Shown here in pieces: positions 11,731 to 33,200 of a stretch of 34,039 bases of DNA. The notes beneath the pieces are model-generated. The model made no database searches, was not told the DNA's origin, and worked only from the letters and a program-made list of their open reading frames with translations. This DNA comes from a virus (lineage: Duplodnaviria > Heunggongvirae > Uroviricota > Caudoviricetes), in the IMG/VR virus record IMGVR_UViG_2617270939_000002. One strand, given 5' to 3'. Each line of letters begins with the position of its first letter. Within the stretch, counting starts at the first letter, position 1. A program made the translations under genes and the position numbers.

Positions 11731-11737
11731 AGTGACC

Positions 11738-12367: not shown

Positions 12368-12645
12368 GTTGTGCTTTCCCCTGCTATTCTTGCGATGTTG
12401 CCACGTGCTCGCCATACAGCTATGCAGACAACAAGGTTGACGACCAACTCTCCGTAGTCGACCTGCACGTAATCACCATGCCAGATGCGGAAAGCGGTAA
12501 ACGCTGGAGCGAGGATCAGCCCATAGGCCAGAAACTCCATCAGACGGCGGCGCCGTAAGCTCCGCTTCCTGAAGAACATCAGGCGTATGGTGATGAGGAT
12601 GCATGCAACAGCGTTAATGTTCAGGATCAGTGTTTGCCACGTCAT
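12364..12645 (-). CDS. Small two-TM membrane protein in lysis cassette (holin partner/antiholin candidate)
   Basis: Hydrophobic segments plus RKRSLRRRR basic patch; ATGA coupling to the upstream holin-like gene. Confidence 0.5.
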   Translation of the reverse strand: MTWQTLILNINAVACILITIRLMFFRKRSLRRRRLMEFLAYGLILAPAFTAFRIWHGDYVQVDYGELVVNLVVCIAVWRARGNIARIAGESTT

Positions 12646-13046
12646 TCTTCCCCCTTCAATCCGGGTAAGTCTCCTGTCTTCGACCGTTTGAGGATGCGAG
12701 CCAGGATGGTGACAGAAACCGATGAAGCCAGCAGGGCACCCATAGCTGGAGATACCTTCACGGAAACTGGAGGAGAAAGGTGACTTAATGCCGCATTGAT
12801 TAGCGCAGCGATGATTTCAGATGCTGTTCCGGCGCAGTAGACTCCACCAATGAATGAGATGAGCGCGAACAGTATCTGCTTCCAGATTTTGTGGTCTTCA
12901 CTGCTCAGGACATAAAGAGCAGCCCCGGCAAGTGAGCAAAGCATTACAGCGGGTGTCGCTTCTGGAAACATCGTCGCGAAGGTGATTCCGGTAGTGCCGG
13001 CGGCCACGCCTGCCGTTACCGTTGCAGATATCGGTTCTGCGGACAT
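12642..13046 (-). CDS. Putative holin (134 aa, multi-TM with charged C-terminal tail)
   Basis: ATG at 13046 with GAGGGGG RBS; TM-rich with C-terminal KRSKTGDLPGLKGEE; first large gene of lysis cassette. Confidence 0.55.
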   Translation of the reverse strand: MSAEPISATVTAGVAAGTTGITFATMFPEATPAVMLCSLAGAALYVLSSEDHKIWKQILFALISFIGGVYCAGTASEIIAALINAALSHLSPPVSVKVSPAMGALLASSVSVTILARILKRSKTGDLPGLKGEE

Positions 13047-13156
13047 TTTGCCCCCTCTTATTGCTGTTGATCCTCTCAGAAGGTTGAGGGGAAACAAAAA
13101 AGGCCACCGTGAGGTGGCCTATATATGATTGAAATTTTTGATTTGGTAAGGCTTGA

Positions 13157-13351
13157 TCAGACCGGCAATGCCTTCGGCTTGCCCATGTGATATGTAACAA
13201 GGCTGCTTTTGCTGCCATCTTCCCAGACTGTAGAGCTCTCGGTGATCTTCAAAATCACCCAGCCTTTAGAAAGGCCCAAATTGACTTGCTCCACATCCTC
13301 TACCGTCCGTACTTCCTGAATTTTACTCAACAAGTTTTCATCTGCGCTCAT
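13157..13351 (-). CDS. Hypothetical small protein (64 aa), first ORF downstream of tR'-like terminator
   Basis: ATG at 13351 with GAGGG RBS. Confidence 0.4.
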   Translation of the reverse strand: MSADENLLSKIQEVRTVEDVEQVNLGLSKGWVILKITESSTVWEDGSKSSLVTYHMGKPKALPV

Positions 13352-13413
13352 CAACTGACCCTCAGTTAAAAAACACAACATAACAAACGCATTGAAGAAA
13401 AACCTTGCTGGAA

Positions 13414-13442
13414 ATAAAAAAACCCGCGCTGAGGCGGGTTTG
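13414..13442 (-). terminator. Rho-independent terminator on minus strand upstream of lysis genes (lambda tR'-like position)
   Basis: Minus-strand hairpin aaacccgc-ctcagc-gcgggttt followed by TTTTTTTATTT. Confidence 0.5.
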
Positions 13443-13829
13443 ATGTCGTGTAGGCGTAATATCCCACGATGGAAAGCATACAGGACATTTTTATGCAAAG
13501 TCAACACTAACGTGCAAAAAAGTGTCGCTACCGTAACCCGTACCAGACCCGCCACACATTCGCCACCAGACACATTAGCCAGGGCGTAAACCTTTTCTGG
13601 CTTGCCGGGCAGATGGGGCATAAAGGGCCGGAAATGCTGTTCCGCAATTACGGTAAATACCTGGCTGAATACGACGGGAAAACCGCCATTTCAGCAGCTC
13701 TGTAGCGTCGTGAGTATTTCAAAATGTTGGACGGAATCAGGACGTTAGAGGGACCACGATATGCACGTAAAATGCACTTGAGGCCTTTCAAAAAAGACAA
13801 AACATTAATATTCAATAGGTTAAGCATTA

Positions 13830-13932: not shown

Positions 13933-14030
13933 ACGTCTATTGTAGTCTAGTGAGAATTGCTGAGAACTACGAGTTATGGCACCCTGAATGGGACCCACGA
14001 AGATGGGTCCTAAAATCGAGGGTCCCAAAC

Positions 14031-15260
14031 ATGGCCAAAATCGCTAAGAAGCTCACTGACACTGAAATCAAAAGCACCAAACCTGCCGAAAAAGAGGTTA
14101 ACCTTTTTGACGGCGATGGTTTGCTGTTGCGAATCGCTCCCCTGGCGAAGGGAGGGAAGAAAAATTGGTATTTCAGATATGCAGTGCCTGTGACCAAAAA
14201 GCGAACTAAGGTGAGCTTAGGAACCTATCCTCACCTTACACTTGCGAAGGCACGAGCTTTACGTGATGAATACTTGTCGTTGCTTACAAATGGTATAGAC
14301 CCCCAAGTTCATAACAACCAAAAAGCCAATGCACTGAAAGATGCCACGGAACATACATTTCAAGCAGTAGCCAAGAAGTGGCTTGATGAGAAAGTCAAAA
14401 CGTCAGGCATCTCCCAAGATCATGCTAACGACATCTGGCGAAGCCTAGAGAGAAATATCTTTTCCACATTGGGTGATACCCCAATTAAGGAGATTCGCCC
14501 TAAAATGCTTAAACAGCATTTAGAACCCATAGAAAAACGAGGTGTCCTTGAAACACTTCGCCGCATCATATCCCGCCTGAATGAAATTTTCCGCTATGCA
14601 GCAACAGAAGAACTCATAGAATTCAACCCGGCAGACAACCTGGGGCAACGGTTCAGCAAGCCAAAAAAACAGAATATGCCAGCATTACCCCCTTCCGAAC
14701 TCCCTCGCTTCTTGGTTGCTCTAAACAATGCTTCTATCCGTTTGGAAACAAGGCTACTGATTGAGTGGCAACTTCTCACATGGGTTCGCCCAGGTGAAGC
14801 TGTTCGCACAAGATGGTCAGATATTGATATTGAAACTGGCATGTGGAACATCCCGGCGGAGTTTATGAAAATGAAGAAGCCTCACAAAGTTCCACTGAGC
14901 AAAGAAGCTTTGCGAGTTTTGGATTTAATGAAAGTCATCAGCGGGCATAGAGAGTGGGTGTTCCCCAGTATCAAAGCTCCACTCAATCACATGCATGAAC
15001 AAACAGCTAATGCGGCCATAATCCGTATGGGTTTCGGAGGTGAGCTTGTAGCTCACGGTATGCGATCCATTGCTAGAACGGCTGCTGAGGAGTCTGGCAA
15101 GTTTAGGACTGATGTCTTAGAAGCCGCCCTTGCCCACTCGAAGAAAGATGAAATAATTGCAGCCTACAATCGTGCAGAGTATCTCACTGAACGGGTGGTT
15201 CTCATGCAATGGTGGAGTGACTATGTTTCGTCTCAAAAATGCAAAGTTATTGCCGCATAA
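14031..15260 (+). CDS. Tyrosine integrase, P4 family (IntA-like), 409 aa
   Basis: MAKIAKKLTDTEIKSTKPAEKEVNLFDGDGLLL...WYFRY... N-terminus and C-terminal HGMRS...LAHS...Y catalytic region; adjacent to ssrA-type att. Confidence 0.9.
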   Translation: MAKIAKKLTDTEIKSTKPAEKEVNLFDGDGLLLRIAPLAKGGKKNWYFRYAVPVTKKRTKVSLGTYPHLTLAKARALRDEYLSLLTNGIDPQVHNNQKANALKDATEHTFQAVAKKWLDEKVKTSGISQDHANDIWRSLERNIFSTLGDTPIKEIRPKMLKQHLEPIEKRGVLETLRRIISRLNEIFRYAATEELIEFNPADNLGQRFSKPKKQNMPALPPSELPRFLVALNNASIRLETRLLIEWQLLTWVRPGEAVRTRWSDIDIETGMWNIPAEFMKMKKPHKVPLSKEALRVLDLMKVISGHREWVFPSIKAPLNHMHEQTANAAIIRMGFGGELVAHGMRSIARTAAEESGKFRTDVLEAALAHSKKDEIIAAYNRAEYLTERVVLMQWWSDYVSSQKCKVIAA

Positions 15261-15542
15261 CTCTCCCATGATGGATTAACTATCTTGATTTAGTTAAAGA
15301 ATTAATAATCACACCATTAACCTATGTGGACTAAGCATAGCCATTTACAAATGGGGACATTGAGTCCACATAACGAAAGCTGTCGGTCATATCAGCTAAA
15401 TAATTCACATCTCTTCTCGATTATCATACACCTCGAAGATCTACCAAATTCGCTCTAATCAATGATAAAACAGTTGAATTCGGTTAAAATTTGATCAATT
15501 TTATCCTCTACATTGTATTGAATCATCCATGAGGTTTCGTGC

Positions 15543-17099
15543 ATGGCTAGCGAAAATGACAAAAATCATAGAGTTAGGGTCGCGCAGTACTTGAGGATGT
15601 CTACCGACCATCAGCAATATTCTTTACATAATCAGTCCGAATATATCAAAGATTATGCTGAAAAGAACAATATGGAAATCGCTTATACCTACGATGATGC
15701 AGGTAAGAGCGGAGTCAGTATCGTAGGCAGGCATTCTTTGCAGCAGTTACTTAGCGATGTAGAACAAAAGAAAATAGATATACAGGCTGTATTATTTTAT
15801 GATGTGAGCCGTTTTGGTCGTTTTCAAAATAGTGATGAAGCGGCATATTATTCCTTTCTATTTGAGAGAAATGGTGTAGATCTTATATATTGTTCCGAAC
15901 CTATACCCACTAAAGATTTCCCTTTAGAGTCCTCTGTTATACTGAATATAAAAAGATCTAGTGCTGCATATCACAGCAGGAATTTATCTGAAAAGGTATT
16001 TATAGGGCAAGTAAATTTAATAAAGCTTGGTTATCATCAAGGCGGTATGGCTGGTTATGGGCTGAGACGTCTTTTAGTAGACGAAAATGGCATAGCTAAA
16101 GAAATATTGAGTTTCCGCAAAAGAAAGAGTATTCAAACAGATAGGGTAATATTAATTCCGGGACCAAAAAATGAAATAAAAATTGTAAATAGAATATATG
16201 ATCTCTTTATAGATAATAACGTCCCAGAATTCATTATTGCTGAGAGATTAAATGAACAGAACATACCTGCAGAAAATGGAACATTATGGACTCGTGCAAA
16301 AATACATCAAATTTTGACAAATGAAAAATATATTGGAAACAACATATATAACAAAACCTCATCTAAATTAAAAAGTAGGCTTGTAAAAAACCCCAAACAT
16401 GAATGGGTTAGATGTGACAAGGCATATAAACCTATTATTTCAAAGAAAAAATACAATAAAGCTCAAGAAATAATTCAGCTCCGATCCATTCATTTGACTA
16501 ATGAAGATCTATTAGAAAAACTAAAACAAAAATTAGAATCTAATGGAAAACTATCAGGCTTTATCATTGATGAAGATGATACAGGCCCTTCATCTTCTGT
16601 TTATAGAACCCGATTTGGTGGTCTTTTAAGAGCATATACTTTGATTGGTTATAAGCCAGAACATGATTACAGCTATCTCAAAATAAATGAAGCACTAAGA
16701 TCATTTCACTCAGAGATAATTGAGGATTTTAAGGGTGAAATTTTAAAAAGTAACTGTCATATAGACGAGTATAAATATGCCCCAATGCTTTACATCAATG
16801 ATGAGTTTTTAATTTCCGTCCTTGTTACTAAATGCATACATATGAAATCAGGTAAACTTAGATGGAAAGTCCGGTTTGATAACTCACAGAAAGCAGACAT
16901 AACAATTGTTATACGAATGAATTCACAAAATATTTCACCTCTTGATTTTTATATCATACCAAAGATTGAAAACGAATATAATAAAATGTGCATGACGGAA
17001 ACAAACAACATTCGATTAGATCTCTATAGATTTGATAATCTTGATAAACTTCTACAAATTATTACTCGCATGAAAGTGAGGGAACTATATGCTGCCTGA
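15543..17099 (+). CDS. Large serine recombinase (resolvase/invertase catalytic domain plus recombinase and zinc-ribbon domains)
   Basis: VAQYLRMSTDHQ catalytic serine motif near N-terminus; 518 aa; AT-rich. Confidence 0.85.
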   Translation: MASENDKNHRVRVAQYLRMSTDHQQYSLHNQSEYIKDYAEKNNMEIAYTYDDAGKSGVSIVGRHSLQQLLSDVEQKKIDIQAVLFYDVSRFGRFQNSDEAAYYSFLFERNGVDLIYCSEPIPTKDFPLESSVILNIKRSSAAYHSRNLSEKVFIGQVNLIKLGYHQGGMAGYGLRRLLVDENGIAKEILSFRKRKSIQTDRVILIPGPKNEIKIVNRIYDLFIDNNVPEFIIAERLNEQNIPAENGTLWTRAKIHQILTNEKYIGNNIYNKTSSKLKSRLVKNPKHEWVRCDKAYKPIISKKKYNKAQEIIQLRSIHLTNEDLLEKLKQKLESNGKLSGFIIDEDDTGPSSSVYRTRFGGLLRAYTLIGYKPEHDYSYLKINEALRSFHSEIIEDFKGEILKSNCHIDEYKYAPMLYINDEFLISVLVTKCIHMKSGKLRWKVRFDNSQKADITIVIRMNSQNISPLDFYIIPKIENEYNKMCMTETNNIRLDLYRFDNLDKLLQIITRMKVRELYAA

Positions 17100-17985
17100 A
17101 AAAAATGAATTCCCAATAATTCAAATTGAGATTGCAAAAATAAAATTTCTTAACCCACGAACAAGAAATAAGTTAGTGCATGAAGAAATAAAGGAAAGCA
17201 TAAAAAAAAGAGGATTAAGCAAGCCTATAAGCGTAAGAGCTATTGATGAAGGCGATTTCAAATATGCTTTAATTTGTGGTCAAGGGAGAATAGAGGCTCT
17301 CGTTGCATTAGGTGAAACTATTATTCCAGCAATTATAAGAGATGTATCAGAAGAAGATGCTTACGTTATGAGTTTAGTTGAAAACATTGCAAGGAGAAGA
17401 CCACGTTCTAATGAGTTATTACAGGTGATTAAAGACATGAAAATCAGAGGACTTTCAGACTCCGAAATAAGTGAGATTACTGGATATTCATCGAACTGGG
17501 TGAGCAGTATTAATATGCTACTTGATAAGGGAGAGCATAAACTTCTCTCAGCAGTCGAACGGGGTAATTTGCCTCTGTATCTCGCAGTGCAATTTGCAAG
17601 ATGTGAAACTGAGGAAGCACAAGATATTCTTACCGAAGCATATGATAAAAAATTAATAAAAAGTCGGGACATTATAAAGATAAAACACATTCTAAATCAA
17701 AGAACAGTTGGGAATAAAGGTGCAAAAGCAGCCGGATTTTATTATCACAAACCATCAAAAAGGATGACTGCAGAGGAGTTGATTGAGCTTTATGAAAATA
17801 GTATCGCTGAACATAAATCTGTTTATAACAACTCAAAATTCATAAAAACCAACCTACTAATAGTAAATGAGATTTTTAACATCATAATGATGAATAAAAG
17901 CTTTCAACATATACTTGAACAAGAGAATCTTTCAGAACTACCATCTCAGATATTAACCCCAATAAACAAAGAGGTATTAAAATGA
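17089..17985 (+). CDS. ParB-like N-terminal domain protein with HTH (paralog 1)
   Basis: ISVRAIDEGDFKYALICGQGRIEALVALGETIIPAIIRDVSEEDAYVMSLVENIARR matches ParB/Spo0J N-domain pattern; 11-nt overlap with recombinase. Confidence 0.7.
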   Translation: MLPEKNEFPIIQIEIAKIKFLNPRTRNKLVHEEIKESIKKRGLSKPISVRAIDEGDFKYALICGQGRIEALVALGETIIPAIIRDVSEEDAYVMSLVENIARRRPRSNELLQVIKDMKIRGLSDSEISEITGYSSNWVSSINMLLDKGEHKLLSAVERGNLPLYLAVQFARCETEEAQDILTEAYDKKLIKSRDIIKIKHILNQRTVGNKGAKAAGFYYHKPSKRMTAEELIELYENSIAEHKSVYNNSKFIKTNLLIVNEIFNIIMMNKSFQHILEQENLSELPSQILTPINKEVLK

Positions 17986-18878
17986 TTCAGATACGTTTTG
18001 GCGATAATTTTATTTACCTGGAAACTAATAAGTTAATTCCATCTAAGGAATTATTAGAAAACGTAAAGCGAAGCCATAAATATCATCAAATAGTTACCTC
18101 TATCGAAAGCTTAGGTATTATTGAACCAATAATAGTATTCTATGACAAAGATAAAGATGTCACTAAGATACTTGATGGCCATTTAAGGGTTGAGGCTTTA
18201 AAAGACTTAGGTATAGAAAAAGCTCCATGTATACTTTCGAGCATAGATGATGCTTTCACTCCTAACAAACAAGTGAATCATATAAATGTAGTTGAAGAAC
18301 ATAGAATGATAATTAAGTCTCTGGCAAAAGTATCAATTGAAAAACTTAGTGCTGCTTTGGGCATATCTGTTGATGCCATAAAAGATAAAGCGAATGTGAT
18401 GAACGGCATAGATCCAAGTGTAATTGCGAAACTTTCTGATAAACCTATACCTAAGGCTACATTTGACGTTTTGAGGAAAATGAAGCCAATTCGCCAAATT
18501 GAAGCAGTCGGTACAATGATTAATTTTGATAATTATAGTAAAAAATTTGCAATGAGCATCTTGGATGCAACACCGGCATCGATGATAGTAAATAAAGGGA
18601 AAAACACTCCCTATAAAAAGGATATAAAAAAAACCATACTTCGTCTGGAACAAGAAATGGCAACAACTTCGGAAGAAACGAAAAAGCTTCAAACCGAGTA
18701 TGGTTCAGATATGTTGAAATTCGTTATAATCCAGTCATATATTAATAAATTACTTGGCAATTCTAAAGTTCTTCATTGGTTCTTAGAAAACGAGGTTGAT
18801 TATCTTAATGAGTTAAAAAGAATTTCTAGAATAAATTCTTTGGATGATAAGACTCTTACTGAAAACAGCAAGTCATAG
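17982..18878 (+). CDS. ParB-like N-terminal domain protein with HTH (paralog 2)
   Basis: IIEPIIVFYDKDKDVTKILDGHLRVEALKDLGIEKAPCIL...; ATGA overlap with paralog 1. Confidence 0.65.
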   Translation: MIQIRFGDNFIYLETNKLIPSKELLENVKRSHKYHQIVTSIESLGIIEPIIVFYDKDKDVTKILDGHLRVEALKDLGIEKAPCILSSIDDAFTPNKQVNHINVVEEHRMIIKSLAKVSIEKLSAALGISVDAIKDKANVMNGIDPSVIAKLSDKPIPKATFDVLRKMKPIRQIEAVGTMINFDNYSKKFAMSILDATPASMIVNKGKNTPYKKDIKKTILRLEQEMATTSEETKKLQTEYGSDMLKFVIIQSYINKLLGNSKVLHWFLENEVDYLNELKRISRINSLDDKTLTENSKS

Positions 18879-19532
18879 TCATGTTTTATATAGCCTAAAT
18901 AAACCAAGAAGTATACTTACACAACGACCTTCACGCCGAAGAAGCTGTCAGATACGCCAGCAACCAAAGCATTACGTTTAAGTGTCAGTCATTGATACGA
19001 AGGGATAACTGCGTATCAGCAGCCGGACATTGAGTCGAATAAAGGCTGGTAGAGAGGGACAGTTCTGTGTCACCGGGAGATTCGTCAGAAACATCAGCGG
19101 CAGAACAGATGAACCAGCAATTGGTAGTGCACAGAAAACTCTCCAGTATTTAATTATTCAACTTAACACTAAAAAAAATCACATATTTAATATCATAATT
19201 TTTCTTTGGTCTACGTATGCGAGAGTTATTGTGGCTTTAACCGGGTATTAGGAGTCGTTTCAGATAAAAGATGTTCTTCGATTCGACTGGACTTGGTAAT
19301 AGCAATAAGTAATCGTTAATATTGAAGGACGAAAGGCTACTTCAAAACAAAGTAACCTTTCCAATATTCCCATCTATGGGACAAGTGGTACATTAACTGC
19401 ACATAGTGCAGGATACATATGACATAAAACTTTTTATTTATGGCATACATTATAAATAACTTGTATTTTATGAATGTCAATAGGTTCTTGTTTAATACTT
19501 TTAAAATAATTAATTGATTGTTTTTATTATAG

Positions 19533-20612: not shown

Positions 20613-22739
20613 TCATCTAACTGACTCAATGATCTTTTGTTCTATAACTCGCCCACCTTGCTTTCCAGACAAAGGACCAATTAGTACTTTAAAGTCGGCA
20701 TAGTCATCTGCCTCAGGCCTATGCTCTATAATAACAATTGCATTGAATAATTTAGATTTTTGATATATAAAATTCAGCACCTTCGAAGCCGTCTCAGAAT
20801 CAAGTCCAGCGACAGGTTCATCAATAAACAATATTTTGTTTGTTTTTCTGGACTTAGATAGTATTTCACATAATTTTATTCTACGCATTTCACCACCTGA
20901 CAGGGACTGCGTTTTTCTATTAAGTTTCAAATGTGATATTCCAAGATAATGGATAGTTTCAAGAATAGTATTAATCTTAGTGTTATTAAAAAAAGAGCTT
21001 AACTCTTTCAACTCAGTATCATATACATCTATTATATTCATACCATTAATCTGAGACTTTACTTCATCTATATTGTGGTCAAACAGTTTACCCTCACATT
21101 TATGACATGATATGTAGATATCCTTTTCAAAACCCCTTTCATATTTTATCACGCCCTTACCTTCACAAACTTTACATCCACCAAGTTTGTTTGGAAGGAA
21201 ATACTCTATATCTAATTTTGTTATATCGGAGAAAAATTCTGCAATTAATTTATTCAAATCCGTGATAGTTGCGACAGTAGAACGTCCTGTATATGATGAC
21301 AATTTTTGGCTTATATAAATCGAATCGGTAAGACTACAAATAGCTTTAGCTAAAGATGATTTCCCCGATCCGGAGATTCCAGAAAAAACAGTAACACACT
21401 CTTTAGGGATACGTATATTTTGATTAATGATGTTATTTTTATTAAGCCCTTCAAAATAATAGTAATCAGATATATTATTTTTGGGATTGAGGTTCCTTTG
21501 CGGCTGAATTTTTTCTTTTTCACAAATTTCCCCACCAGAAGAACCAGCGTATTTACCAACATGGATTTGCTGATCAGCAAGATCTATGAAATACTGCGAG
21601 TGCTCTACTAAAATAACTGTGTTTTTTTCTGATAATTTTTTTAGCTTTTGAAAGATAACTTCAAAATCGACAGGGTTAATTTGGGATGATATTTCATCGA
21701 TAACAATCAGAATACCTGTTGTATTAGATGTTAAAAGCCTGCTGAAAATAAGTTTTTGTATTTCCCCCCCAGAAAGACTGGGAATTGAACGAGACAAATT
21801 TAAATATCCCAATCCCATATTATTTATTGAGGACAACACTCTAATTAATACTGAGTCACCTATAGTTTTTTTCAGGGTATTACATAATTCAGATATAGGA
21901 GATAGTAAAAATTCATCAAATGTAAATCCTAAAACATCAAGTTGGGCTGTTTCTTGGTTAATTCTGCTTCCATTACAAAATGAGCAATTTTCTTCCTTTT
22001 TATACTTTGAATTGTTTTGGCTCCGTCCTATATTCGAATTAGCAAAAGACATTACGCCTTTATAAAAAGCTCTTCTTTGCTTCGTTTTTCCTTTGTGTTT
22101 AAATCTAAAAGATAATTTCTCAGCGCTTTCTCCATATAGTATTAGGTTTTTCTTTTCAAGTGATAGTGAATCAAAAGTATCATCTACTTTTATATTATTT
22201 TTATCACAATAGACCATAAGTAATTGGTGATAATAATCAGATAACTCACCAGTCCGCCAACATAAAAATGGTTTTTGATCTAGTCTACATTTTTCATTAA
22301 TTAATTCAGATTCATCCACACTAACTATCTCGCCAAGGCCTAAGCAGTGTGGACATTCATTTCTATAATTGTTTATTTTTAATTTATCATAATTAGGTAC
22401 TGCTACGTTTCTTTTGATTTTTAAAGATGACAAAGCTTGAGCTATATTCAGATATGAATATATAGTTGAACGAGGGTTGTTATTTGTGTTTCTTTGTGGT
22501 ATCGCAACAGCGGGAATTAACCCACTGAAATTTGCAACTTTATAATCACTTTCATTCAAATAACCGTTTTCTACAGCATCAAACTCATCTTTGCATAATT
22601 GATAAATTGATGAAAATGCTAAAGAACTTTTTCCTGCGCCCGAACGGCCATAAATAGCGGTTATTGTATTAAATGGTATAGTAACATCTAAATTTTTTAA
22701 ATTATGGGTGGCTATTCCCTCAAAAATGATCTTATTCAT
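20613..22739 (-). CDS. UvrA-like double-ABC ATPase with zinc-finger insertions (708 aa)
   Basis: Two Walker A motifs (GRSGAGKSS, GISGSGKSS), two ABC signatures (LSGGEIQKL, LSGGEMRRI), several CxxC pairs; AGAGGA RBS; ATG overlaps upstream stop as ATGAATAA. Confidence 0.85.
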   Translation of the reverse strand: MNKIIFEGIATHNLKNLDVTIPFNTITAIYGRSGAGKSSLAFSSIYQLCKDEFDAVENGYLNESDYKVANFSGLIPAVAIPQRNTNNNPRSTIYSYLNIAQALSSLKIKRNVAVPNYDKLKINNYRNECPHCLGLGEIVSVDESELINEKCRLDQKPFLCWRTGELSDYYHQLLMVYCDKNNIKVDDTFDSLSLEKKNLILYGESAEKLSFRFKHKGKTKQRRAFYKGVMSFANSNIGRSQNNSKYKKEENCSFCNGSRINQETAQLDVLGFTFDEFLLSPISELCNTLKKTIGDSVLIRVLSSINNMGLGYLNLSRSIPSLSGGEIQKLIFSRLLTSNTTGILIVIDEISSQINPVDFEVIFQKLKKLSEKNTVILVEHSQYFIDLADQQIHVGKYAGSSGGEICEKEKIQPQRNLNPKNNISDYYYFEGLNKNNIINQNIRIPKECVTVFSGISGSGKSSLAKAICSLTDSIYISQKLSSYTGRSTVATITDLNKLIAEFFSDITKLDIEYFLPNKLGGCKVCEGKGVIKYERGFEKDIYISCHKCEGKLFDHNIDEVKSQINGMNIIDVYDTELKELSSFFNNTKINTILETIHYLGISHLKLNRKTQSLSGGEMRRIKLCEILSKSRKTNKILFIDEPVAGLDSETASKVLNFIYQKSKLFNAIVIIEHRPEADDYADFKVLIGPLSGKQGGRVIEQKIIESVR

Positions 22740-23814
22740 ACTTTCCTCTACACCAATCACATTCAGGATCACGTGGAACATCTTGGACGTTAAAAGATAA
22801 ACTTCTAAGACTAAATTCGACTCTTTTATTTTCTTGTTGCAAGTGATCTACTTTCCCGGCAAGTAATTTTATAGCGTCCAAGCTTGCAAGGCTTGCAGCC
22901 AGACCTGATAGTGGTGAAAATGAACCTAATTTTCGTTTTACCCGGTGCAATTTCTTCACATTAACAAGGTCTTTGCTATTTATTTTTCCTAAAAATAGGT
23001 TAAAACAATTAAAGCATGCTGACTTAAATGGAATAATTGTCTGACCGATAAGGGTTTGATGAAGATTATATCCCCCGCCAACTATATGTGGGATATTATG
23101 AATCATACTAAAGAGGGCGATTATTTTACTGGTGTAATCCACATTAGGTTCATCAGCGCAGTTTATTATCAAATCTATATCAGAGGGTAGAATATTTCTT
23201 TTAAAAAAATCATCATCGATAATGTCATTGATAATGTCAATCTTAATATCTGGAGATATCTTTTTCAAAGAGTTGAGTAACGCTATATTTTTATCAGAGT
23301 TAATTTCATCCTCGAAATAAAACTGACGATGTAAATTACTTATATCTACATTATCGTGATCTACAAATATTATCGAACCAACATTGCAATGAGCAAGATA
23401 CGTTGCCACATTACTACCGACTGCTCCAATACCTACAATCATTACTTTTGATTTTTTAAGATTAATTATACATTCTAAAACCTCACTGGTGGTATGACAG
23501 TAGTCTTCAAATGTATTGATCATTCTATATTGTTCAGTGACAAGCTCTGCAGGGTATTGGCAATCTTGATCGATAATTATATTGTTTTCATTCAAAAACA
23601 AAGCTAATTTTTCAAGTTGTTGAATATCGATTCCTGAATAATTTGCTACAATTTCTTGAAGAGAAGTTTGCCCATCAAACATCTTTAAGAGTTCAACTAT
23701 ATTTGGAAAGTTGATTTTTATTTTTATACTTTCTCTAATATTGGATTTAAAAAACTCTACAGTATCATCATTTACGACGATACCAATACTTTGTCGCAGT
23801 CTAAAATTATTCAT
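22732..23814 (-). CDS. E1-like adenylyltransferase (ThiF/MoeB/MccB family) with PqqD-like N-terminal peptide-binding domain, paralog B (alternative GTG start at 23832)
   Basis: KVMIVGIGAVGSNVATYLAHCNVGSIIFVDHDNVDISNLHRQ nucleotide-binding motif; N-terminal LLKMFDGQTSLQEIV; C-terminal CFNC...CDWC. Confidence 0.8.
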   Translation of the reverse strand: MNNFRLRQSIGIVVNDDTVEFFKSNIRESIKIKINFPNIVELLKMFDGQTSLQEIVANYSGIDIQQLEKLALFLNENNIIIDQDCQYPAELVTEQYRMINTFEDYCHTTSEVLECIINLKKSKVMIVGIGAVGSNVATYLAHCNVGSIIFVDHDNVDISNLHRQFYFEDEINSDKNIALLNSLKKISPDIKIDIINDIIDDDFFKRNILPSDIDLIINCADEPNVDYTSKIIALFSMIHNIPHIVGGGYNLHQTLIGQTIIPFKSACFNCFNLFLGKINSKDLVNVKKLHRVKRKLGSFSPLSGLAASLASLDAIKLLAGKVDHLQQENKRVEFSLRSLSFNVQDVPRDPECDWCRGKYE

Positions 23815-24931
23815 TACAGATTTTGCATCCACTTTGTTTTACCAATTCAAAATTAGTCATTTTGCCTTCGTTTGGAAGGTATTCATACCGACTATTTACA
23901 TATGAAAATGCTGAATCATCCAACAGGAAGTGAATTAATTTCATGCAACTTAGATTAGCTGAAAAACCATTCATCATTGCTAATCCACCAGGCCCTCCTG
24001 GAATATAATTATCATAGACAGATTTTGAAAGGTCCAGTTGAGGATTATTGACTATACTATATACAGGCTTCCATCCTTTTAATGCCTTTGAAAACGTATT
24101 TTGGGCACAATCTATACAGGGTGTATGTGGAGGGAATATTAATTCTCCTGAACTCATTAAGTGGGCGTCAAATCCACCTGATACATACAGCGGAATAGCT
24201 CTTGCTTGTGCATATCTACCAAGTTTTAAAGAAGTATGACCTATATAAGGCTCATCACAAGTATTAATAATCAGATCTGTATCATCAGAAATGATAGAGG
24301 ATAGATTAGTAGTAGGTATAAGTTTTTCAAAATGTTTTGTTATTATTACTCGACTATCGATCCAACTCAAAAATTCTGACAGGACATCTACCTTTGGTTT
24401 TCCGATTTTCTTATAGTTATAATAACAATGCCTTGCTGCATTTGACTTTGAAAGGGACTTATAATCAACCAAAACTATATTTTTAACACCTGCGCGGACA
24501 AGTATTTCTATAATTTTGGCTCCTACAGCTCCACACCCAAATAAAACAACCTTTTTGCTCTCCAAGATATGTTGAGTTTCTACACCAGGTCGTTCAAGGA
24601 CAAAATCGTCCCAAAATGTAATTTGTCGTGAAAAACGAGGTTCAATATCGCAAATGTTATTTACATCATAAATAAAATGTTGATTTAGTAAAAAAGCAAT
24701 TAGTTTATCGACATCTTTTGAGCGTAGGGACCCCATCTCAGTAACTATATCATTTATAGTTTTTATACCATCAAGGCTGGCAATAAATCGAGCGACATTT
24801 TTATTAGTTTTTATTTCTAATCTATCACGCGTTGTCATCACATGAAATGTGAGTTTGACATTATCAGTATTATCTTCATTCGATATAAAAATATCCACAG
24901 TTTCTTTTATTTTATATTTTTTGGAGTCCAT
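23807..24931 (-). CDS. E1-like adenylyltransferase (ThiF/MoeB/MccB family) with PqqD-like N-terminal peptide-binding domain, paralog A
   Basis: KKVVLFGCGAVGAKIIEILVRAGVKNIVLVDYK motif; N-terminal FIASLDGIKTINDIVTEMG; C-terminal CIDC...CKIC. Confidence 0.8.
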   Translation of the reverse strand: MDSKKYKIKETVDIFISNEDNTDNVKLTFHVMTTRDRLEIKTNKNVARFIASLDGIKTINDIVTEMGSLRSKDVDKLIAFLLNQHFIYDVNNICDIEPRFSRQITFWDDFVLERPGVETQHILESKKVVLFGCGAVGAKIIEILVRAGVKNIVLVDYKSLSKSNAARHCYYNYKKIGKPKVDVLSEFLSWIDSRVIITKHFEKLIPTTNLSSIISDDTDLIINTCDEPYIGHTSLKLGRYAQARAIPLYVSGGFDAHLMSSGELIFPPHTPCIDCAQNTFSKALKGWKPVYSIVNNPQLDLSKSVYDNYIPGGPGGLAMMNGFSANLSCMKLIHFLLDDSAFSYVNSRYEYLPNEGKMTNFELVKQSGCKICNE

Positions 24932-24945
24932 TGTATATTCCCAAT

Positions 24946-24970
24946 AAAATCGCCCATCAAGGGCGATTTT
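24946..24970 (-). terminator. Perfect 10-bp hairpin (aaaatcgccc-atcaa-gggcgatttt) between small ORF and first E1-like gene; candidate attenuator/partial terminator
   Basis: Read directly; placement between a small ORF and enzyme genes is the classic precursor/processing arrangement. Confidence 0.5.
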
Positions 24971-24979
24971 GAATTTAGA

Positions 24980-25180
24980 TTAATATTGGAGAACGCCGGC
25001 GTTAACCTCCAAGTATTTTTCCCAAGCATCTAAATTCGACGCTGAGTTTTGCTCGTCGTTACCAGCTCGCGTGCATACACGAGTACAACAGTCACTACGT
25101 TCTCCAGAGCAACCACCCGTATAGTTGGCGGTAGCATTGGTATTGCTGATGACTTCAAATGTTAAATCTAAACACTGCAT
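24980..25180 (-). CDS. Small Cys-rich protein (66 aa), candidate precursor/substrate peptide of the E1-like operon
   Basis: ATG at 25180 with AAGGA RBS; MQCLDLTFEVISNTNATANYTGGCSGERSDCCTRVCTRAGNDEQ...; GC content higher than the enzyme genes, so assignment is tentative. Confidence 0.4.
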   Translation of the reverse strand: MQCLDLTFEVISNTNATANYTGGCSGERSDCCTRVCTRAGNDEQNSASNLDAWEKYLEVNAGVLQY

Positions 25181-25610: not shown

Positions 25611-26156
25611 TTGAAGACCAGAAATCGTTGCCTAAGCGATATTCTTAAAGCGTCGGCGGAACGTTCAGACAAACCCACTGGAGCTGTGCTACAGCATCTT
25701 ATTGGAGCCAAACTCCAATTGCGCTTTCCCAATGTTAAAATCGGCAGTGACAGAGCCAATGCAGCTGACTTACACACTGACCGTGAGGGTGATTTTCAGG
25801 TGGGTACTACTGCATTCCACGTGACCACCGCACCTATGGAGAAATTGATTTCGCGCTGTGTCGAAAACAAACGTGCAGGCTACAGGCCGGTCATCCTAAC
25901 TCTTGAAAGCAAAGTCATTGCAGCACGCCAGATGGCTGATAACGTTGGTATGTCTGAACAGATAGCCGTCCAGGCAGCCGAAACTTTCATCGGTAACAAT
26001 ATTGAAGAGATTGCTATCTATGACGGCGATAAAATCCGTGAGGGTCTCGCAAGACTGATACGTACGTACAACGTCCGTATCAATACTATCGAGATAGATA
26101 AATCCCTTATGATTGATGAGCCTCGTTGGATCGTTAACTTACTGACCGACTCCTGA
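25611..26156 (+). CDS. Hypothetical protein, possibly 5'-truncated gene remnant (TTG start in ORF track), in a segment of E. coli-like GC content
   Basis: 181-aa ORF without a convincing start or RBS; composition differs from flanking AT-rich DNA. Confidence 0.4.
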   Translation: MKTRNRCLSDILKASAERSDKPTGAVLQHLIGAKLQLRFPNVKIGSDRANAADLHTDREGDFQVGTTAFHVTTAPMEKLISRCVENKRAGYRPVILTLESKVIAARQMADNVGMSEQIAVQAAETFIGNNIEEIAIYDGDKIREGLARLIRTYNVRINTIEIDKSLMIDEPRWIVNLLTDS

Positions 26157-27156: not shown

Positions 27157-28110
27157 ATGAGTAACTATACAGAAGATAATTTATTTGACAGCATATCTAA
27201 AAAAGACGTCCAGAATTGCATTGCTGCAGGCATTGACATTAACACACTAAATGAACACGGTGAAAACGCCCTTTTCGGTTGCGACAGTATCGGGGCTTTA
27301 AAAGCTATGATTGAAGCAGGCATAGCGCTGAACCATACAGATTGTTATGGTAATAATGCCCTGTTTAGCAGAAAAAGCCCACGAGCACTGGGGCTATTGA
27401 TAAAATCAGGTATTAACGTTCATCACAAAAATAATAAAGGCCTGTCCTGTCTTCACTGGCAGCACTACGACATAGATTGTGCGGAACTCCTCATTAACGC
27501 GGGCGTTGATATCCACAGCACAGATAATGAAGGTCAAACGCTTCTTTACAACCTCCACGATCATGACGTCTTTGATTACTGGGTAAATAAAGGGTGTGAC
27601 ATAAACCACAGAGATTATAATGGCAAAGCGGTGCTGGACCTTCCGACTGACGACGAGTGGTGGATATATGATTTCAGTATTAATGCCCTCAAACGCCATG
27701 TTGACAGAATAGACAGCACACCAGTTTTATTTAAACATATTTCAACTGAGGCGTTGCCTCTGATTGCTTTGCTTCATGAAAAAGGGCGTAATATCCTTAT
27801 CGCTGAACACTGTACCTTCGCATTATATGTCAAAAACATGAAGTCCTTCTTTACCTCACTGAAAAAATATACCGATATCAGTCATGTTCAGTTTTATAAT
27901 TGTTATCATGACAGACATATTGGTGTCTATACTGGTATTGAGACAGTAAAATGGTTTATTCGAAATGGTATCAGAGTGGACGACGATATACTGAGACAGC
28001 GTGCTGACTCTGATAAAATTTTTGACTATATAAGCGGAAGAGAGAAAAAAGATTTTCTCAAAATCATGAAACCAGAAATCACCCATGCGCCGAAGAGAAA
28101 AAGAATGTGA
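27157..28110 (+). CDS. Ankyrin-repeat protein (N-terminal ANK repeats, unknown C-terminal domain)
   Basis: Repeated ...G(I/V)(D/N)(I/V)N..(D/N)..G..AL(F/Y/H)... units (NEHGENALF, DCYGNNALF, NNKGLSCLHW, DNEGQTLLY, DYNGKAVLDL). Confidence 0.75.
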   Translation: MSNYTEDNLFDSISKKDVQNCIAAGIDINTLNEHGENALFGCDSIGALKAMIEAGIALNHTDCYGNNALFSRKSPRALGLLIKSGINVHHKNNKGLSCLHWQHYDIDCAELLINAGVDIHSTDNEGQTLLYNLHDHDVFDYWVNKGCDINHRDYNGKAVLDLPTDDEWWIYDFSINALKRHVDRIDSTPVLFKHISTEALPLIALLHEKGRNILIAEHCTFALYVKNMKSFFTSLKKYTDISHVQFYNCYHDRHIGVYTGIETVKWFIRNGIRVDDDILRQRADSDKIFDYISGREKKDFLKIMKPEITHAPKRKRM

Positions 28111-28307: not shown

Positions 28308-28697
28308 ATGAATAATGACATAACAAGACTATCAAGGCGTGGAAAATTCCATACTGACAAACTTCCGCCTGATGAAAGACGAAGCCACTGCGTCAGTGTC
28401 AGATTAAATGAAGAAGAATTAACTATTCTCGACAGTAAAAGAGGCCAGTATAAAAAAGGGGAATGGTTGAGAATGGCTTCCCTGAACAAACTCCCACCGG
28501 TTCTGCCCGAAATAAATCGCGAAGCATGGATTAAACTCGGCAGCCTTTCCCAGGATTTAAATTACCTACTGAATCATCTTGACAAGAAAAGTCCTGACAG
28601 CGAACTAACCCGTACAGAACTCTTTGCCCTGCGCAGACAAATCAAAACGCTTCGGGATCACCTTATTCCCTCAACATTTCTGGAGCAAGACCGATGA
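28308..28697 (+). CDS. MobC-like relaxosome accessory protein (ribbon-helix-helix)
   Basis: RRSHCVSVRLNEEELTILDSKRGQYKKGEWLR pattern; ATGA coupling to relaxase. Confidence 0.65.
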   Translation: MNNDITRLSRRGKFHTDKLPPDERRSHCVSVRLNEEELTILDSKRGQYKKGEWLRMASLNKLPPVLPEINREAWIKLGSLSQDLNYLLNHLDKKSPDSELTRTELFALRRQIKTLRDHLIPSTFLEQDR

Positions 28698-29953
28698 AAG
28701 GCATGCAGAAAATAAAAAGGGGTAAACAGTTTGCAGGAGTGGTGCTTTACAGCCTCAAATCCGGTCCACACCACAACGTTATGCCTTATGTCATCGGTGG
28801 TAATATGATCGGAAGTTCGGTGGCTGAGCTTATCAGTGAGTTTGAAATTTCTAAACAATTGCGTCCCGATGTCGCCAAACCCGTCTGGCATAATTCACTT
28901 CGCCTGCCAAAGGGAGAAACACTGTCAGCCAGACAGTGGGCGGCATTCGCCGACGATTATATGACCCGGATGGGGTTCACTGAAACGCACCTTCGCTGTT
29001 ATATCCTTCACGATGATACCGACGGGCAGCATATCCATATCATTGCAAGTCGCATTAACATGGCCGGTGGAAAGCTGTACCTGGGGAAAAATGAAAATCT
29101 CATCAGCACCCGCATTATCAGCGAACTGGAGCGAATACACGGACTCACTGAAACAACACCTGCAACCAGCAGTCGCCCTCAGGCTAAAAGAAAACCCTCA
29201 CGCAATGAGCTGATGATGGCAGAACGAACAGCAGTTCCCTGCCCTAAGTCTCAGTTGCAGACCCTGATTGATAATGTCTTAACGCATCGTCCCGATTTAC
29301 TGACTTTTATCGACATGCTGGAACAGAAAGGTGTGACCTGTAAACCCAATATCGCGTCGACCGGAAAAATGAATGGATTTTCATTTCAGTACCAGGGTAT
29401 TGCCTTTAAAGCGTCTCAGCTTGGAAAAAAGTATGGCTGGTCTTCTCTGCAAACGCAGATTGATTTTACACCAGAGCACCTGGCCTTACTGAAAAAAGAG
29501 CAACAACAGACTGTACCAGTGCCAGTGCCAGTGCCAGTGCCAGTGCCAGTGCCAGTGCCAGTGCCAGTGCCAGTGCCAGTGCCAGTGCCAGTGCCATCAT
29601 GCGAGCCTGAAGAACAGGTTGCAAACCGGGAAACGATTCTGGAGAAAATCCTTCAGCTTGAAGAAAAAATTCGTCTGGAAAGACAACAGGAAACAGTGGG
29701 TGTCATTCAACTCAGGAGCAAACTGCACAATACAGCTCGTCAGATACCCCGCCAGCGTCGTCTGCATTCGTGGTTTGTATTGCTCGGCCATATTGTGGCA
29801 CTTCTCAGGCGCAGGGGCATGTCTCTGTTACATGCCACTGCACATCCTTTCCACCAAATCCTGCACCTGCATCTTCTGACACCCTGTCATTCCATGACAA
29901 CAAATCCCATTAAAGAACAATTAGTTAAAAATAACCCCCATCCTGCACCATAA
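28694..29953 (+). CDS. Mobilisation relaxase (MobA/VirD2-like) containing a (VP)14 linker
   Basis: HLRCYILHDDTDGQHIHIIASRINMAGGKLY histidine-triad region; follows MobC-like gene. Confidence 0.75.
   Translation: MKGMQKIKRGKQFAGVVLYSLKSGPHHNVMPYVIGGNMIGSSVAELISEFEISKQLRPDVAKPVWHNSLRLPKGETLSARQWAAFADDYMTRMGFTETHLRCYILHDDTDGQHIHIIASRINMAGGKLYLGKNENLISTRIISELERIHGLTETTPATSSRPQAKRKPSRNELMMAERTAVPCPKSQLQTLIDNVLTHRPDLLTFIDMLEQKGVTCKPNIASTGKMNGFSFQYQGIAFKASQLGKKYGWSSLQTQIDFTPEHLALLKKEQQQTVPVPVPVPVPVPVPVPVPVPVPVPVPVPSCEPEEQVANRETILEKILQLEEKIRLERQQETVGVIQLRSKLHNTARQIPRQRRLHSWFVLLGHIVALLRRRGMSLLHATAHPFHQILHLHLLTPCHSMTTNPIKEQLVKNNPHPAP
29514..29597 (+). repeat. Hexanucleotide microsatellite (GTACCA + 13 x GTGCCA) encoding (Val-Pro)14 inside relaxase
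   Basis: Read directly from sequence. Confidence 0.95.
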
Positions 29954-32466: not shown

Positions 32467-32748
32467 GTGGGTGATACATGGTTAATGCTGGAAGAGCTAC
32501 GTTTTGTCATGGAGCAGTTCGCTCAGGCAACTAACGTTGGGCCGTTGATGCAGCACCTTATCCGCTTCTGCGTTTATGCTGGCGGGCAGCGACCGTTTGA
32601 AATGATTGCCAGCCAATGGAGCGCGATTGACTGGCAGCAAAAGACGTTACTGGTCATAGCCGATGTATCGAAAAACAAACGGGAGCACCTGATCCCATTG
32701 ACTGAATCGGCATTAAGTGAATTAGCCTCAGTGAAAGAACTGATGTAG
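32467..32748 (+). pseudogene. Tyrosine integrase internal fragment (5'-truncated, 3' end interrupted by IS insertion)
   Basis: GGQRPFEMIASQWSAIDWQQKTLLVIADVSKNKREHLIPLTESALSEL resembles start of integrase catalytic domain; stop codon created at IS junction. Confidence 0.55.
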
Positions 32749-32804
32749 CCCCCTGAAACACCGGACAGTAGCTGTATCTCCAGATAAGAGATAGGCTTGA
32801 ATAT

Positions 32805-33200
32805 ATGTCTAACACTAACGCCAATTTTGAGATGACCGGGATCCTGTTAGGGCAAGAAGTCCGTAAACGTAAAACTCCTCAGGAGAAGATCGCCATTATC
32901 CAGCAGACGATGGAGCCGGGTATGAATGTCTCCCATGTCGCCCGCCTGCATGGTATCCAGCCCAGCCTGCTGTTTAAGTGGAAGAAGCAATATCAGGAAG
33001 GCAGCCTCACCGCCGTTGCGGCTGGAGAGGAAGTCGTTCCTGCTTCTGAGCTTACTGCTGCTCTGAAGCAGGTCCGGGAGCTTCAGCGCCTTCTGGGCAA
33101 GAAGACGATGGAAGTTGAGATCCTGAAAGAAGCCGTGGAGTACGGTCAGTCGCGAAAATGGATAGCGCACGCGCCCTTGTTGCCAAAGGACGGGGAATAG
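32805..33200 (+). CDS. IS3-family transposase OrfA (IS2 InsC-like, HTH)
   Basis: [53 protein letters not shown]...[17 protein letters not shown]. Confidence 0.85.

Follow-up and report, generated by a model that had tools for sequence, protein, structure and literature searches.

MccB from the microcin C7 pathway of E. coli adenylates the C-terminal carboxylate of a ribosomal peptide encoded immediately upstream, and the McC precursors are usually heptapeptides that must end in Asn. PaaA (pantocin A) and the ThiF-like macrocyclases GrcB and IndF are RRE-fused ThiF-like enzymes that adenylate a carboxylate of a precursor peptide, which is then attacked by a nucleophile within the same peptide (PMC12250964, PMC12150305). 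Those clusters have one ThiF-like enzyme plus a peptidase and/or a transporter, and short cores. UvrA paralogues lacking the UvrB-binding domain (class II UvrA/UvrA2) include antibiotic self-resistance proteins such as DrrC and Ecm16, and the known resistance proteins accompany small-molecule DNA binders made by actinomycetes. Here, we describe a compact four-gene cassette in a 34,039-nucleotide stretch of DNA (the window) that encodes a small cysteine-rich peptide, two MccB-type enzymes and a UvrA-like ATPase. All its elements are on the minus strand:

24980..25180, minus strand: small precursor-like gene, 66 aa (MQCLDL...GVLQY), from ATG 25180 to the stop at 24980
24945..24971, minus strand: terminator- or attenuator-like hairpin, AAAATCGCCC-TTGAT-GGGCGATTTT followed by ATT
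23807..24931, minus strand: E1-A, MccB-type enzyme, 374 aa
22732..23814, minus strand: E1-B, MccB-type enzyme, 360 aa
20613..22739, minus strand: UvrA paralogue without the UvrB-binding domain, 708 aa

The arrangement described in the initial annotation was confirmed in every detail. The starts were assigned to ATG 23814 for E1-B (not the GTG at 23832) and to ATG 22739 for the UvrA-like gene. The three large genes are joined by two stop/start overlaps that are both exactly ATGAATAA (23814..23807 and 22739..22732). The octamer alone is not rare in this AT-rich window (6 matches against 2.9 expected), but what matters is where it sits, and the same 8-nt overlaps recur in homologous loci. Folding of the hairpin gave a dG of -19.2 kcal/mol (z = -3.65), with 1 of 200 shuffles folding as well, and the hairpin was also flagged by a terminator scan. 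A stable hairpin, often with a T-run, follows the small ORF in all loci except the two Bacteroidota ones, although the hairpin sequences are unrelated. This attenuator-like position points to peptide being made in excess over the enzymes.

The small gene is preceded by an AAGGA Shine-Dalgarno and has 584 homologues at E<=0.01, all annotated as hypothetical. It is the most conserved gene of the cassette across phyla. The peptide has a leader-like N-terminal strand (LDLTFEVI), the core Y-T-G-G-CSGERSDCCTRVCTR, a variable linker, a C-terminal helix and the terminus GVLQY-COOH. It contains 5 Cys in this copy, of which 4 are conserved in homologues (C24, C31, C32, C36). Across the family the core is near-invariant (CSGxRSDCCTRVCTR), and 114 of 115 homologues end G-[VIL]-[LIVM]-Q-Y at the stop codon, whereas no internal acidic residue is invariant. 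AlphaFold2 predicted the peptide alone to be disordered with a single helix (pLDDT 57.5, pTM 0.21). One natural variant has two tandem cores within an intact cassette.

Profile and structure searches placed both middle genes with the peptide-modifying enzymes MccB and PaaA and not with the ThiF/MoeB sulfur-carrier activators. The Pfam ThiF model (PF00899) hit E1-A at 8.6e-31 and E1-B at 5.1e-36. MccB was the best PDB hit for E1-A (7e-14) and for E1-B (5.6e-23 over residues 75-363), and PaaA was hit as well. Foldseek matched full-length MccB at TM 0.79-0.80 over about 370 columns. The initial annotation had assigned a PqqD-like domain to both proteins, but the Pfam PqqD model itself does not hit either of them, and the assignment of an N-terminal peptide-clamp/RRE domain rests instead on full-length similarity to MccB and PaaA. 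The ..DG..T...[DE]I motif is present in both N-terminal domains, GxGxxG is present in both proteins, and each has two CxxC pairs (C272/275 and C369/372 in E1-A; C267/270 and C352/355 in E1-B) that are invariant in 19 paired loci and correspond to the zinc site shared with MccB. E1-B has a fully canonical and invariant ATP/Mg2+ site (GxGxxG, DxD, SNLHRQ, K, NCADxP). E1-A has a divergent nucleotide pocket, in which R99/R102/Q103, D156, K180 and D226 are invariant but the Asn of SNLxRQ is D/N/S and the Gln is His, and it carries the family-specific invariant motifs DEPYIGHTS and GGFDAHLMSSGE. E1-A falls into 45 clusters at 50% identity among 1.84 billion representatives.

The two enzymes are ancient paralogues, 24% identical over the full length, that strictly co-occur. 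AlphaFold modelled them as one compact heterodimer (fused model pTM 0.81, both halves at pLDDT 85-95). In this model only the N-terminal strand of the peptide was modelled as a strand, at moderate confidence (pLDDT about 66), and the core and the C-terminal tail were not placed in any active site (pLDDT about 30).

The last protein has two Walker A motifs (GRSGAGKS, aa 31-38; GISGSGKS, aa 454-461), two LSGGE signatures (aa 322 and 613), two Walker B DE pairs and four CxxC. Its tandem ABC ATPase modules, the DNA-binding insertion domain flanked by a zinc module, and the C-terminal zinc module are intact. However, it scored 360.9 bits against a cutoff of 729.8 with the UvrA equivalog TIGR00630, and the alignment to B. 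stearothermophilus UvrA (2r6f) skips UvrA residues about 128-287. Pfam found UvrA_DNA-bind (2.6e-11) but no UvrB-interaction domain. PDB hits included D. radiodurans UvrA2 (2vf7) and an 812-aa UvrA-like chain (7sh1) that is probably Ecm16. In sequence the protein is closer to canonical UvrA (8e-83) than to those paralogues (1e-64 and 9e-58), so this is an independent loss of the domain.

The cassette is conserved as a unit far beyond chance. All four genes are present in every complete locus but one, across about 35 loci from Pseudomonadota, Bacteroidota, Bacillota and Fusobacteriota, and no other neighbour is conserved. The exception (Zoogloea) keeps the peptide and both E1 genes but lacks the UvrA-like gene. 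Firmicutes add a RadC-like JAB gene (PF04002), found inside the operon in 8 Firmicutes/Negativicutes loci. No exporter, YcaO, E2, sulfurtransferase or dedicated leader peptidase was found in any of these loci, whereas the nearest single-ThiF relatives sit beside ABC/FtsX transporters or a C39 peptidase. A TOMM-type cyclodehydratase is not indicated, as no YcaO was found in the window or in any homologous locus and the only trace was a weak TIGR03882 hit at 0.01, below cutoff.

The flanks of the cassette are mobile elements and defence islands. The neighbours include RADAR, Gabija and IetS (IetAS), BREX-1, a TerB/BrxC-like/helicase trio, Mrr plus integrase plus relaxase, Tn7-like cargo, a P4-like satellite, and a C5-methylase plus DUF4928 R-M pair next to the near-identical copy. 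This context was established without a matched genomic background, and some of the PADLOC hits are to single generic ATPases or helicases. The cassette was absent from 50,697 phage genomes and from IMG/VR, so prophage carriage, which is common for defence systems, was not seen. The cassette itself matched no system in PADLOC 2023, where only generic E1-E2 and mad3 hits were obtained, and no description was found in NCBIfam 2026, in two 2025 reviews of ThiF-like RiPP enzymes, neither of which mentions UvrA, or in the searchable literature.

The initial annotation proposed a peptide-modifying (RiPP-like) or peptide-nucleotide conjugating system with UvrA-like immunity, or a defence module. This interpretation is supported by our analysis, and the defence alternative gains support from the genomic context. 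However, a microcin-C-type peptide-nucleotide conjugate is unlikely, because the peptide ends in Tyr rather than the obligatory Asn. In contrast to the microcin C7 pathway, there are moreover two paralogous E1 enzymes instead of one homodimer, a peptide of about 60 aa, no MccC/D/E/F-type exporter, tailoring or immunity genes, and a UvrA-like ATPase as partner. None of the PaaA, GrcB and IndF clusters has a UvrA-like gene or a paralogue pair. The known UvrA-like resistance proteins are not associated with a ribosomal peptide operon in Gram-negative or gut bacteria.

Among the alternatives, a microcin-like antibiotic for competition between bacteria remains possible but is unlikely. In that case the E1 pair would mature the peptide into a DNA-targeting toxin released by lysis or by an unlinked host exporter, for example a TolC-dependent pump, with the UvrA-like protein as classical producer self-immunity. 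MccB and PaaA, the closest characterised enzymes, make antibiotics, the gene organisation with an attenuator hairpin is precursor-like, UvrA paralogues without the UvrB-binding domain are known self-resistance determinants for DNA-binding antibiotics, and in Pseudomonas the UvrA-like gene is transcribed divergently, as immunity genes often are. However, no exporter or dedicated leader peptidase was found in about 35 loci, the core is almost invariant across four phyla with no sign of the diversification usual for bacteriocins, and the neighbours are defence systems and not competition loci.

Somewhat more doubtful is a ubiquitin-like tagging system without an E2, in which the heterodimeric E1 would ligate the C-terminus of the peptide to an amine on a protein (possibly the UvrA-like ATPase or a phage protein) or to a nucleic acid. 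The UvrA-like protein would be the DNA sensor or effector, and the RadC-like JAB protein of the Firmicutes versions would reverse or process the tag, as Cap3 does in type II CBASS. The conserved tail at the extreme end of the peptide is reminiscent of how E1 enzymes recognise ubiquitin-like tails, the asymmetric pair, with one canonical and one altered ATP site, resembles the eukaryotic heterodimeric E1s (NAE1-UBA3, SAE1-SAE2), and, as for the bacterial E1-based systems (CBASS Cap2/Cap3, Bil/Bub), the context is defence islands. Both E1 proteins hit PADLOC Cap2 E1-E2 models at up to 2e-18, but these hits cover only the E1 portion. No E2 domain or gene is present, neither E1 has an invariant Cys other than the zinc ligands and the Cys of the NCAD motif, and the peptide is not a beta-grasp fold and lacks a Gly-Gly terminus. 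Further, the JAB gene is absent from all Proteobacteria, Bacteroidota and Fusobacteriota versions, and the attenuator, the tandem-core variant and the RRE-type clamp domains fit RiPP logic better.

A sulfur-carrier or peptide-derived cofactor pathway (as with ThiS and MoaD, or as in PQQ and mycofactocin), with a functionally unrelated UvrA-like gene, is very unlikely: although ThiF/MoeB profiles do hit both enzymes, the extreme conservation of the peptide resembles cofactor precursors and its ...GV-x-x-Y end loosely recalls what is probably the ...GVY end of the mycofactocin precursor, all NCBIfam ThiF/MoeB equivalog scores are far below cutoff (for example 92 against 275), there is no beta-grasp fold or Gly-Gly terminus, no locus has a rhodanese, cysteine desulfurase, radical-SAM or oxidase gene, the distribution is sporadic and mobile-element-borne rather than metabolic, and the UvrA-like gene is translationally coupled and co-inherited.

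Our preferred, but tentative, reading, which is based on computation only, is that the cassette makes and handles a modified ribosomal peptide inside the cell. The leader-like N-terminal strand of the peptide is inferred to dock on a clamp domain, after which the E1 pair, with E1-B as the certain adenylating subunit, would activate with ATP the free C-terminal Tyr, the only invariant carboxylate of the peptide; this site is inferred from conservation only. The acyl-adenylate would then be captured by a Cys, Ser or Thr of the core, giving a large thiolactone or lactone, as GrcB and IndF do on a smaller scale. The mature peptide is proposed to act on DNA, with the UvrA-like ATPase keeping the host's own DNA clear of it. 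The latter role is inferred by analogy only, and the protein could equally be a sensor or the effector. The near-invariant core is atypical for antibiotic RiPPs, and the Zoogloea locus is awkward if the product is lethal without immunity, although that copy has the most divergent core.

The conceptual model for this function, which is entirely hypothetical here, is chemical anti-phage defence by DNA-intercalating secondary metabolites (Kronheim et al., 2018), in which a DNA-directed compound appears to block phage while the producer is protected, in anthracycline producers probably in part by a UvrA-like protein. Those compounds are polyketides made by large clusters and secreted, whereas here the agent would be a ribosomal peptide made by a 5-kb mobile cassette and kept inside the cell. 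As no locus has an exporter and the cassette travels in defence islands and mobile elements, we think that it works inside the cell as a conflict, anti-phage or anti-mobile-element module rather than as a secreted bacteriocin. The cassette is conserved as a unit across four bacterial phyla and rides on mobile DNA next to known anti-phage systems, and as we found no description of it, it is a strong candidate for a new peptide-based conflict or immunity system.

Based on analysis of the minus strand between 20613 and 25180 we found four co-oriented genes and a hairpin, in the following order:
25180 to 24980 (minus strand), a 66-aa ORF running from ATG to the stop, with an AAGGA Shine-Dalgarno
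24971..24945 (minus strand), a 10-bp GC-cored hairpin
24931..23807 (minus strand), E1-A, 374 aa
23814..22732 (minus strand), E1-B, 360 aa
22739..20613 (minus strand), a UvrA-like gene, 708 aa

The hairpin folds at dG -19.2 kcal/mol with z = -3.65, 1 of 200 shuffles folds as well, and it was also flagged by a terminator scan. The three large genes are translationally coupled, and both junctions are the octamer ATGAATAA, in which the stop of one gene overlaps the start of the next. The octamer is not itself unusual in this AT-rich window (6 found, 2.9 expected) and its meaning is simply translational coupling. However, the 8-nt overlaps are conserved in homologous loci. All the motifs listed in the initial annotation, including the nucleotide-binding motifs and CxxC pairs of the two middle proteins and the duplicated Walker A and LSGGE signatures of the last one, are present. 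The block is 31-34% G+C, whereas the window is otherwise mostly 40-55%. Rfam found no known RNA element in the locus and there is no tRNA in the window, the only Rfam match in the window being a full-length cspA thermoregulator at 7537-7953 (minus strand; 141 bits against a gathering score of 78).

Both middle proteins match Pfam ThiF (8.6e-31 and 5.1e-36 for E1-A and E1-B), but all ThiF/MoeB/MoeZ equivalogs in NCBIfam score far below cutoff. Against all PDB sequences the best hit for both was MccB (7e-14 and 5.6e-23), with alignments running into the N-terminal peptide-clamp domain, and PaaA of pantocin A was also hit. An AlphaFold model matched full-length MccB with TM 0.79-0.80. The Pfam PqqD model gave no hit, and the RRE assignment, described as PqqD-like in the initial annotation, rests on the homology to MccB and PaaA. 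E1-A and E1-B are full-length paralogues that are 24% identical. In 19 paired loci E1-B keeps every canonical residue invariant (GxGxxG, DxD, SNLHRQ, Lys and the Mg-binding Asp). E1-A keeps the RxxRQ motif, the Gly loop, D156, K180 and D226, but its Asn is D/N/S, its Gln is His and the second Asp of its DxD is mostly Lys, and it has its own invariant motifs, DEPYIGHTS and GGFDAHLMSSGE. The direct paralogue alignment and the spacing to the GxGxxG loop place the invariant Arg97 of E1-B opposite the finger Arg102 of E1-A, so that it can only be said that E1-B is canonical and the E1-A pocket is altered. Each protein has an invariant CxxC...CxxC zinc site.

We modelled E1-A, E1-B and the peptide as one fused chain with a paired alignment, and the result had a pTM of 0.81 with both enzyme halves at pLDDT 85-95, which requires a confidently placed E1-A:E1-B interface. 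As E1-like enzymes are known to be obligate dimers and the two genes strictly co-occur, a heterodimer is the most economical reading, although this is inferred and not demonstrated. The Foldseek alignment of the fused model to Uba1 was too poor (rmsd 17-20 Å) to support or refute a Uba1-like pseudo-dimer geometry.

The small protein behaves like a precursor peptide and not like a folded carrier. A profile of 17 homologues found 584 proteins at E<=0.01, all of which are annotated as hypothetical. The architecture is constant and consists of a hydrophobic and acidic N-terminal strand (Φ-x-Φ-x-F-E-x-Φ), a core Y-[TS]-x-x-CSGxRSDCCTRVCTR that is identical or nearly so in about 90% of sequences, a variable linker, a helix (W..YLE), and a terminus G-[VIL]-[LIVM]-Q-Y directly before the stop codon in 114 of 115 sequences. 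A minor clade (Pantoea, Cedecea and a Pectobacterium) has the core C(R/K)TNGxSxCCSTYCTA. The invariant residues are therefore F8, C24, S29, C31, C32, C36, W53 and G62, with Q65 and Y66 differing in only 1 of 115 homologues. No internal acidic residue is invariant, so the only invariant carboxylate is the C-terminus. With a 115-sequence alignment AlphaFold predicted no globular fold (pLDDT 57.5, pTM 0.21, a single helix at 46-60). In the fused model only the N-terminal strand of the peptide was modelled as a strand, at pLDDT about 66, and neither the core nor the tail was placed. One natural homologue (protein P0121, at 4467-4727 of L038, one of the retrieved loci) carries two tandem copies of the core unit (DYTADCSGSRSDCCTRVCTRNCNE twice) between the leader and the C-terminal tail, and sits in an otherwise intact cassette. 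A stable hairpin, usually followed by a T-run, comes directly after the small ORF in every locus except the two Bacteroidota ones, and the hairpin sequences are unrelated. This is the classical attenuator arrangement that lets a precursor be made in excess over its enzymes. Unusually for a RiPP, the peptide is the most conserved gene of the cassette, with 48-63% identity across phyla against 32-43% for the enzymes.

The last protein is a UvrA paralogue. It scores 360.9 bits on the UvrA equivalog, against a cutoff of 729.8, and has the Pfam UvrA DNA-binding (insertion) domain. It aligns to B. stearothermophilus UvrA in three blocks that skip UvrA residues about 128-287, the UvrB-binding region, and has the architecture of the UvrB-domain-less paralogues. 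Both Walker A, Walker B and signature motifs are intact, as are the zinc modules flanking the insertion domain and in the second ABC half. However, the protein is closer to canonical UvrA than to D. radiodurans UvrA2 or the 812-aa chain 7sh1.

E1-A homologues number 234 in a collection of 5.8 billion proteins, and at 50% identity there are 45 E1-A-type clusters among 1.84 billion representatives. We retrieved about 35 loci from Pectobacterium, Lelliottia, Aeromonas, Cedecea, Pantoea, Brenneria, Acinetobacter, Moraxella, Neisseria, Zoogloea, Methyloprofundus, Ignatzschineria, Aliivibrio, Shewanella, Pseudomonas, Porphyromonas, Phocaeicola, Leptotrichiaceae, Lachnospiraceae, Blautia, Oscillospiraceae, Trichococcus, Macrococcus and Veillonella, and with a single exception every complete locus has the small ORF, E1-A, E1-B and the UvrA-like gene. 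The exception is Zoogloea oleivorans (locus L014, 9742-12209), which keeps the peptide, E1-A and E1-B but has no UvrA-like gene, and whose peptide core (CTSGGSSGCCTAICSG) and E1-A nucleotide pocket are the most divergent of all. In Pseudomonas the UvrA-like gene is transcribed divergently. Eight Firmicutes/Negativicutes loci (L023, L024, L026-L028 and L030-L032; for example L024 9549-10001) have a fifth gene between the peptide gene and E1-A, encoding a 150-aa RadC-like JAB/MPN protein (HNHPSG motif; PF04002 at 1.5e-30), which is absent from all Gram-negative, Bacteroidota and Fusobacteriota versions and from L038. All-against-all comparison of 259 flanking ORFs found no other gene shared between genera, and no transporter, YcaO, E2, sulfurtransferase or radical-SAM family recurs among the flanking ORFs. 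By contrast, the nearest single-ThiF relatives outside the family sit next to ABC/FtsX exporters or a C39 peptidase, like ordinary secreted RiPP clusters. A chance juxtaposition of housekeeping genes is excluded by the synteny.

In the window the cassette is cargo of an apparent integrative mobilisable element, and the features around the cassette are as follows:
11300-13650 (minus strand), a prophage-type lysis module (glycoside hydrolase 19 endolysin, phage holin) immediately before the integrase, 79-89% identical to phage-plasmid-like records of Enterobacter and Klebsiella
13950-15260, a tyrosine integrase
15543-17099, a large serine recombinase; two tandem ParB/RepB-like genes also lie on this side of the cassette, within 13950-19000
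25611-26156 (plus strand), a 5'-truncated DUF4928 gene
27157-28110 (plus strand), an ankyrin-repeat protein (317 aa) and an upstream 146-aa ORF with no family hit, between the R-M remnant and the mobilisation genes
28308-29953, a NikA-like protein plus a MobA/VirD2 relaxase
28694-29953 (plus strand), the relaxase, with a long perfect Pro-Val dipeptide repeat (about 15 units) between its nuclease domain and its C-terminal part
32700-34039 (plus strand), an IS3-family transposase (HTH_Tnp_1 plus rve), 99.8% identical to copies on about 2,000 Klebsiella, Enterobacter and E. coli plasmids

The DUF4928 gene matches profile positions 142-306 of 306. In L039 (6974-9098), a near-identical metagenomic contig, a C5 DNA methylase and a full-length DUF4928 gene are still found next to the peptide gene, and the pair looks like a probable type II R-M-like system which has decayed in the window, where the methylase is missing. 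The ankyrin-repeat protein and the 146-aa ORF are both conserved in this contig. In other genomes the cassette lies 340 bp from RADAR, 1.4 kb from a complete Gabija and close to IetAS, directly after BREX-1 on an Acinetobacter plasmid, next to a TerB / BrxC-like ATPase / DEAD-helicase trio, next to an Mrr nuclease on an integrase-plus-relaxase element, and inside a Tn7-like transposon. Among 144 ORFs within 4 kb of the cassette in 26 loci, PADLOC also reported Shango, type II REase, PDC-S01/S13/S15, BrxD, DrmD and SoFic hits, and the commonest Pfam families there are integrases, recombinases and transposases. Megablast of the cassette found nothing in 72,556 plasmids, whereas tblastn found 2 plasmids and none of 50,697 phage genomes, and a scan of IMG/VR found nothing. 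In 5,426 complete E. coli genomes the only trace was an IS-truncated remnant on the chromosome of E. coli 23AR0998 (locus L001, 15214-16146), consisting of the last 310 codons of the UvrA-like gene, 99.9% identical to the window and bracketed by IS1 and IS3 inside a P4-like satellite integrated at ssrA.

We infer that the leader strand of the peptide docks on a clamp domain and that the heterodimer, with E1-B certainly and E1-A possibly, adenylates the C-terminal Tyr carboxylate, after which a core Cys, Ser or Thr captures the adenylate to close a large ring. Published ThiF-like RiPP enzymes work in this way, with carboxylate adenylation followed by attack from a peptide nucleophile (PMC12250964; PMC12150305). 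The product is inferred to be directed at DNA, the one target conserved enough to explain a nearly invariant core across four phyla, and the UvrA-like ATPase to protect host DNA, by analogy with the UvrA-like resistance proteins known for DNA-binding antibiotics. Because no export function was found among the flanking ORFs and the neighbours are immune systems, we tentatively favour an intracellular role against phages or other mobile elements. A less likely alternative is a released DNA-targeting microcin with UvrA-like immunity. Slightly weaker still is E2-less tagging of a target, with the UvrA-like protein as sensor or effector and JAB as eraser. A sulfur-carrier or cofactor pathway is very improbable, as there is neither a beta-grasp fold nor a GG terminus.

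The enzymes belong to the RRE-fused ThiF-like family by their fold and clamp. The system is not a microcin C system, as the C-terminal Asn and the exporter and immunity genes are lacking, and it is not a TOMM system (no YcaO) or a Cap2/Cap3- or Bil-type ubiquitin-like system (no E2). PADLOC 2023 gave only generic Cap2 E1-E2 and mad3 (UvrA-like ATPase) hits and no known system, and NCBIfam 2026 has no model for the peptide and no equivalog for any of the genes, which RefSeq annotates as hypothetical, ThiF family or ABC-domain proteins. Two 2025 reviews of ThiF-like RiPP enzymes list only the microcin C, pantocin, GRC, enterofaecin and Ind types and never mention UvrA, and full-text literature searches, including one on the peptide motif, found no description. 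What is new is thus the unprecedented partner set and context of a ThiF-like peptide-modification system, which could prove categorically new if the defence reading is right. In its most far-reaching form, which we regard as doubtful, this would be the first immune or conflict system whose effector is a ribosomally made peptide matured inside the cell by a heterodimeric E1-like enzyme into a DNA-directed agent, with a UvrA-derived ATPase that tells apart or clears self DNA, in other words a 5-kb, horizontally mobile RiPP-based chemical defence against phages or other invading DNA. It would also define a new RiPP class with new E1 chemistry on a C-terminal tyrosine.

The cassette is small, self-contained and widespread, with at least 584 peptide homologues that include gut Bacteroidota and Firmicutes and opportunistic pathogens. 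If the proposed function holds, it links two fields that have so far been separate, ribosomal peptide natural products and prokaryotic immunity. It would add a new reaction to the small repertoire of ThiF/E1-like peptide chemistry, would be a bacterial example of an asymmetric E1 heterodimer, and would show a new use of the UvrA scaffold outside nucleotide excision repair. Even if it proves to be a bacteriocin, it would be a new RiPP family, probably DNA-targeting, with an unusual resistance mechanism.
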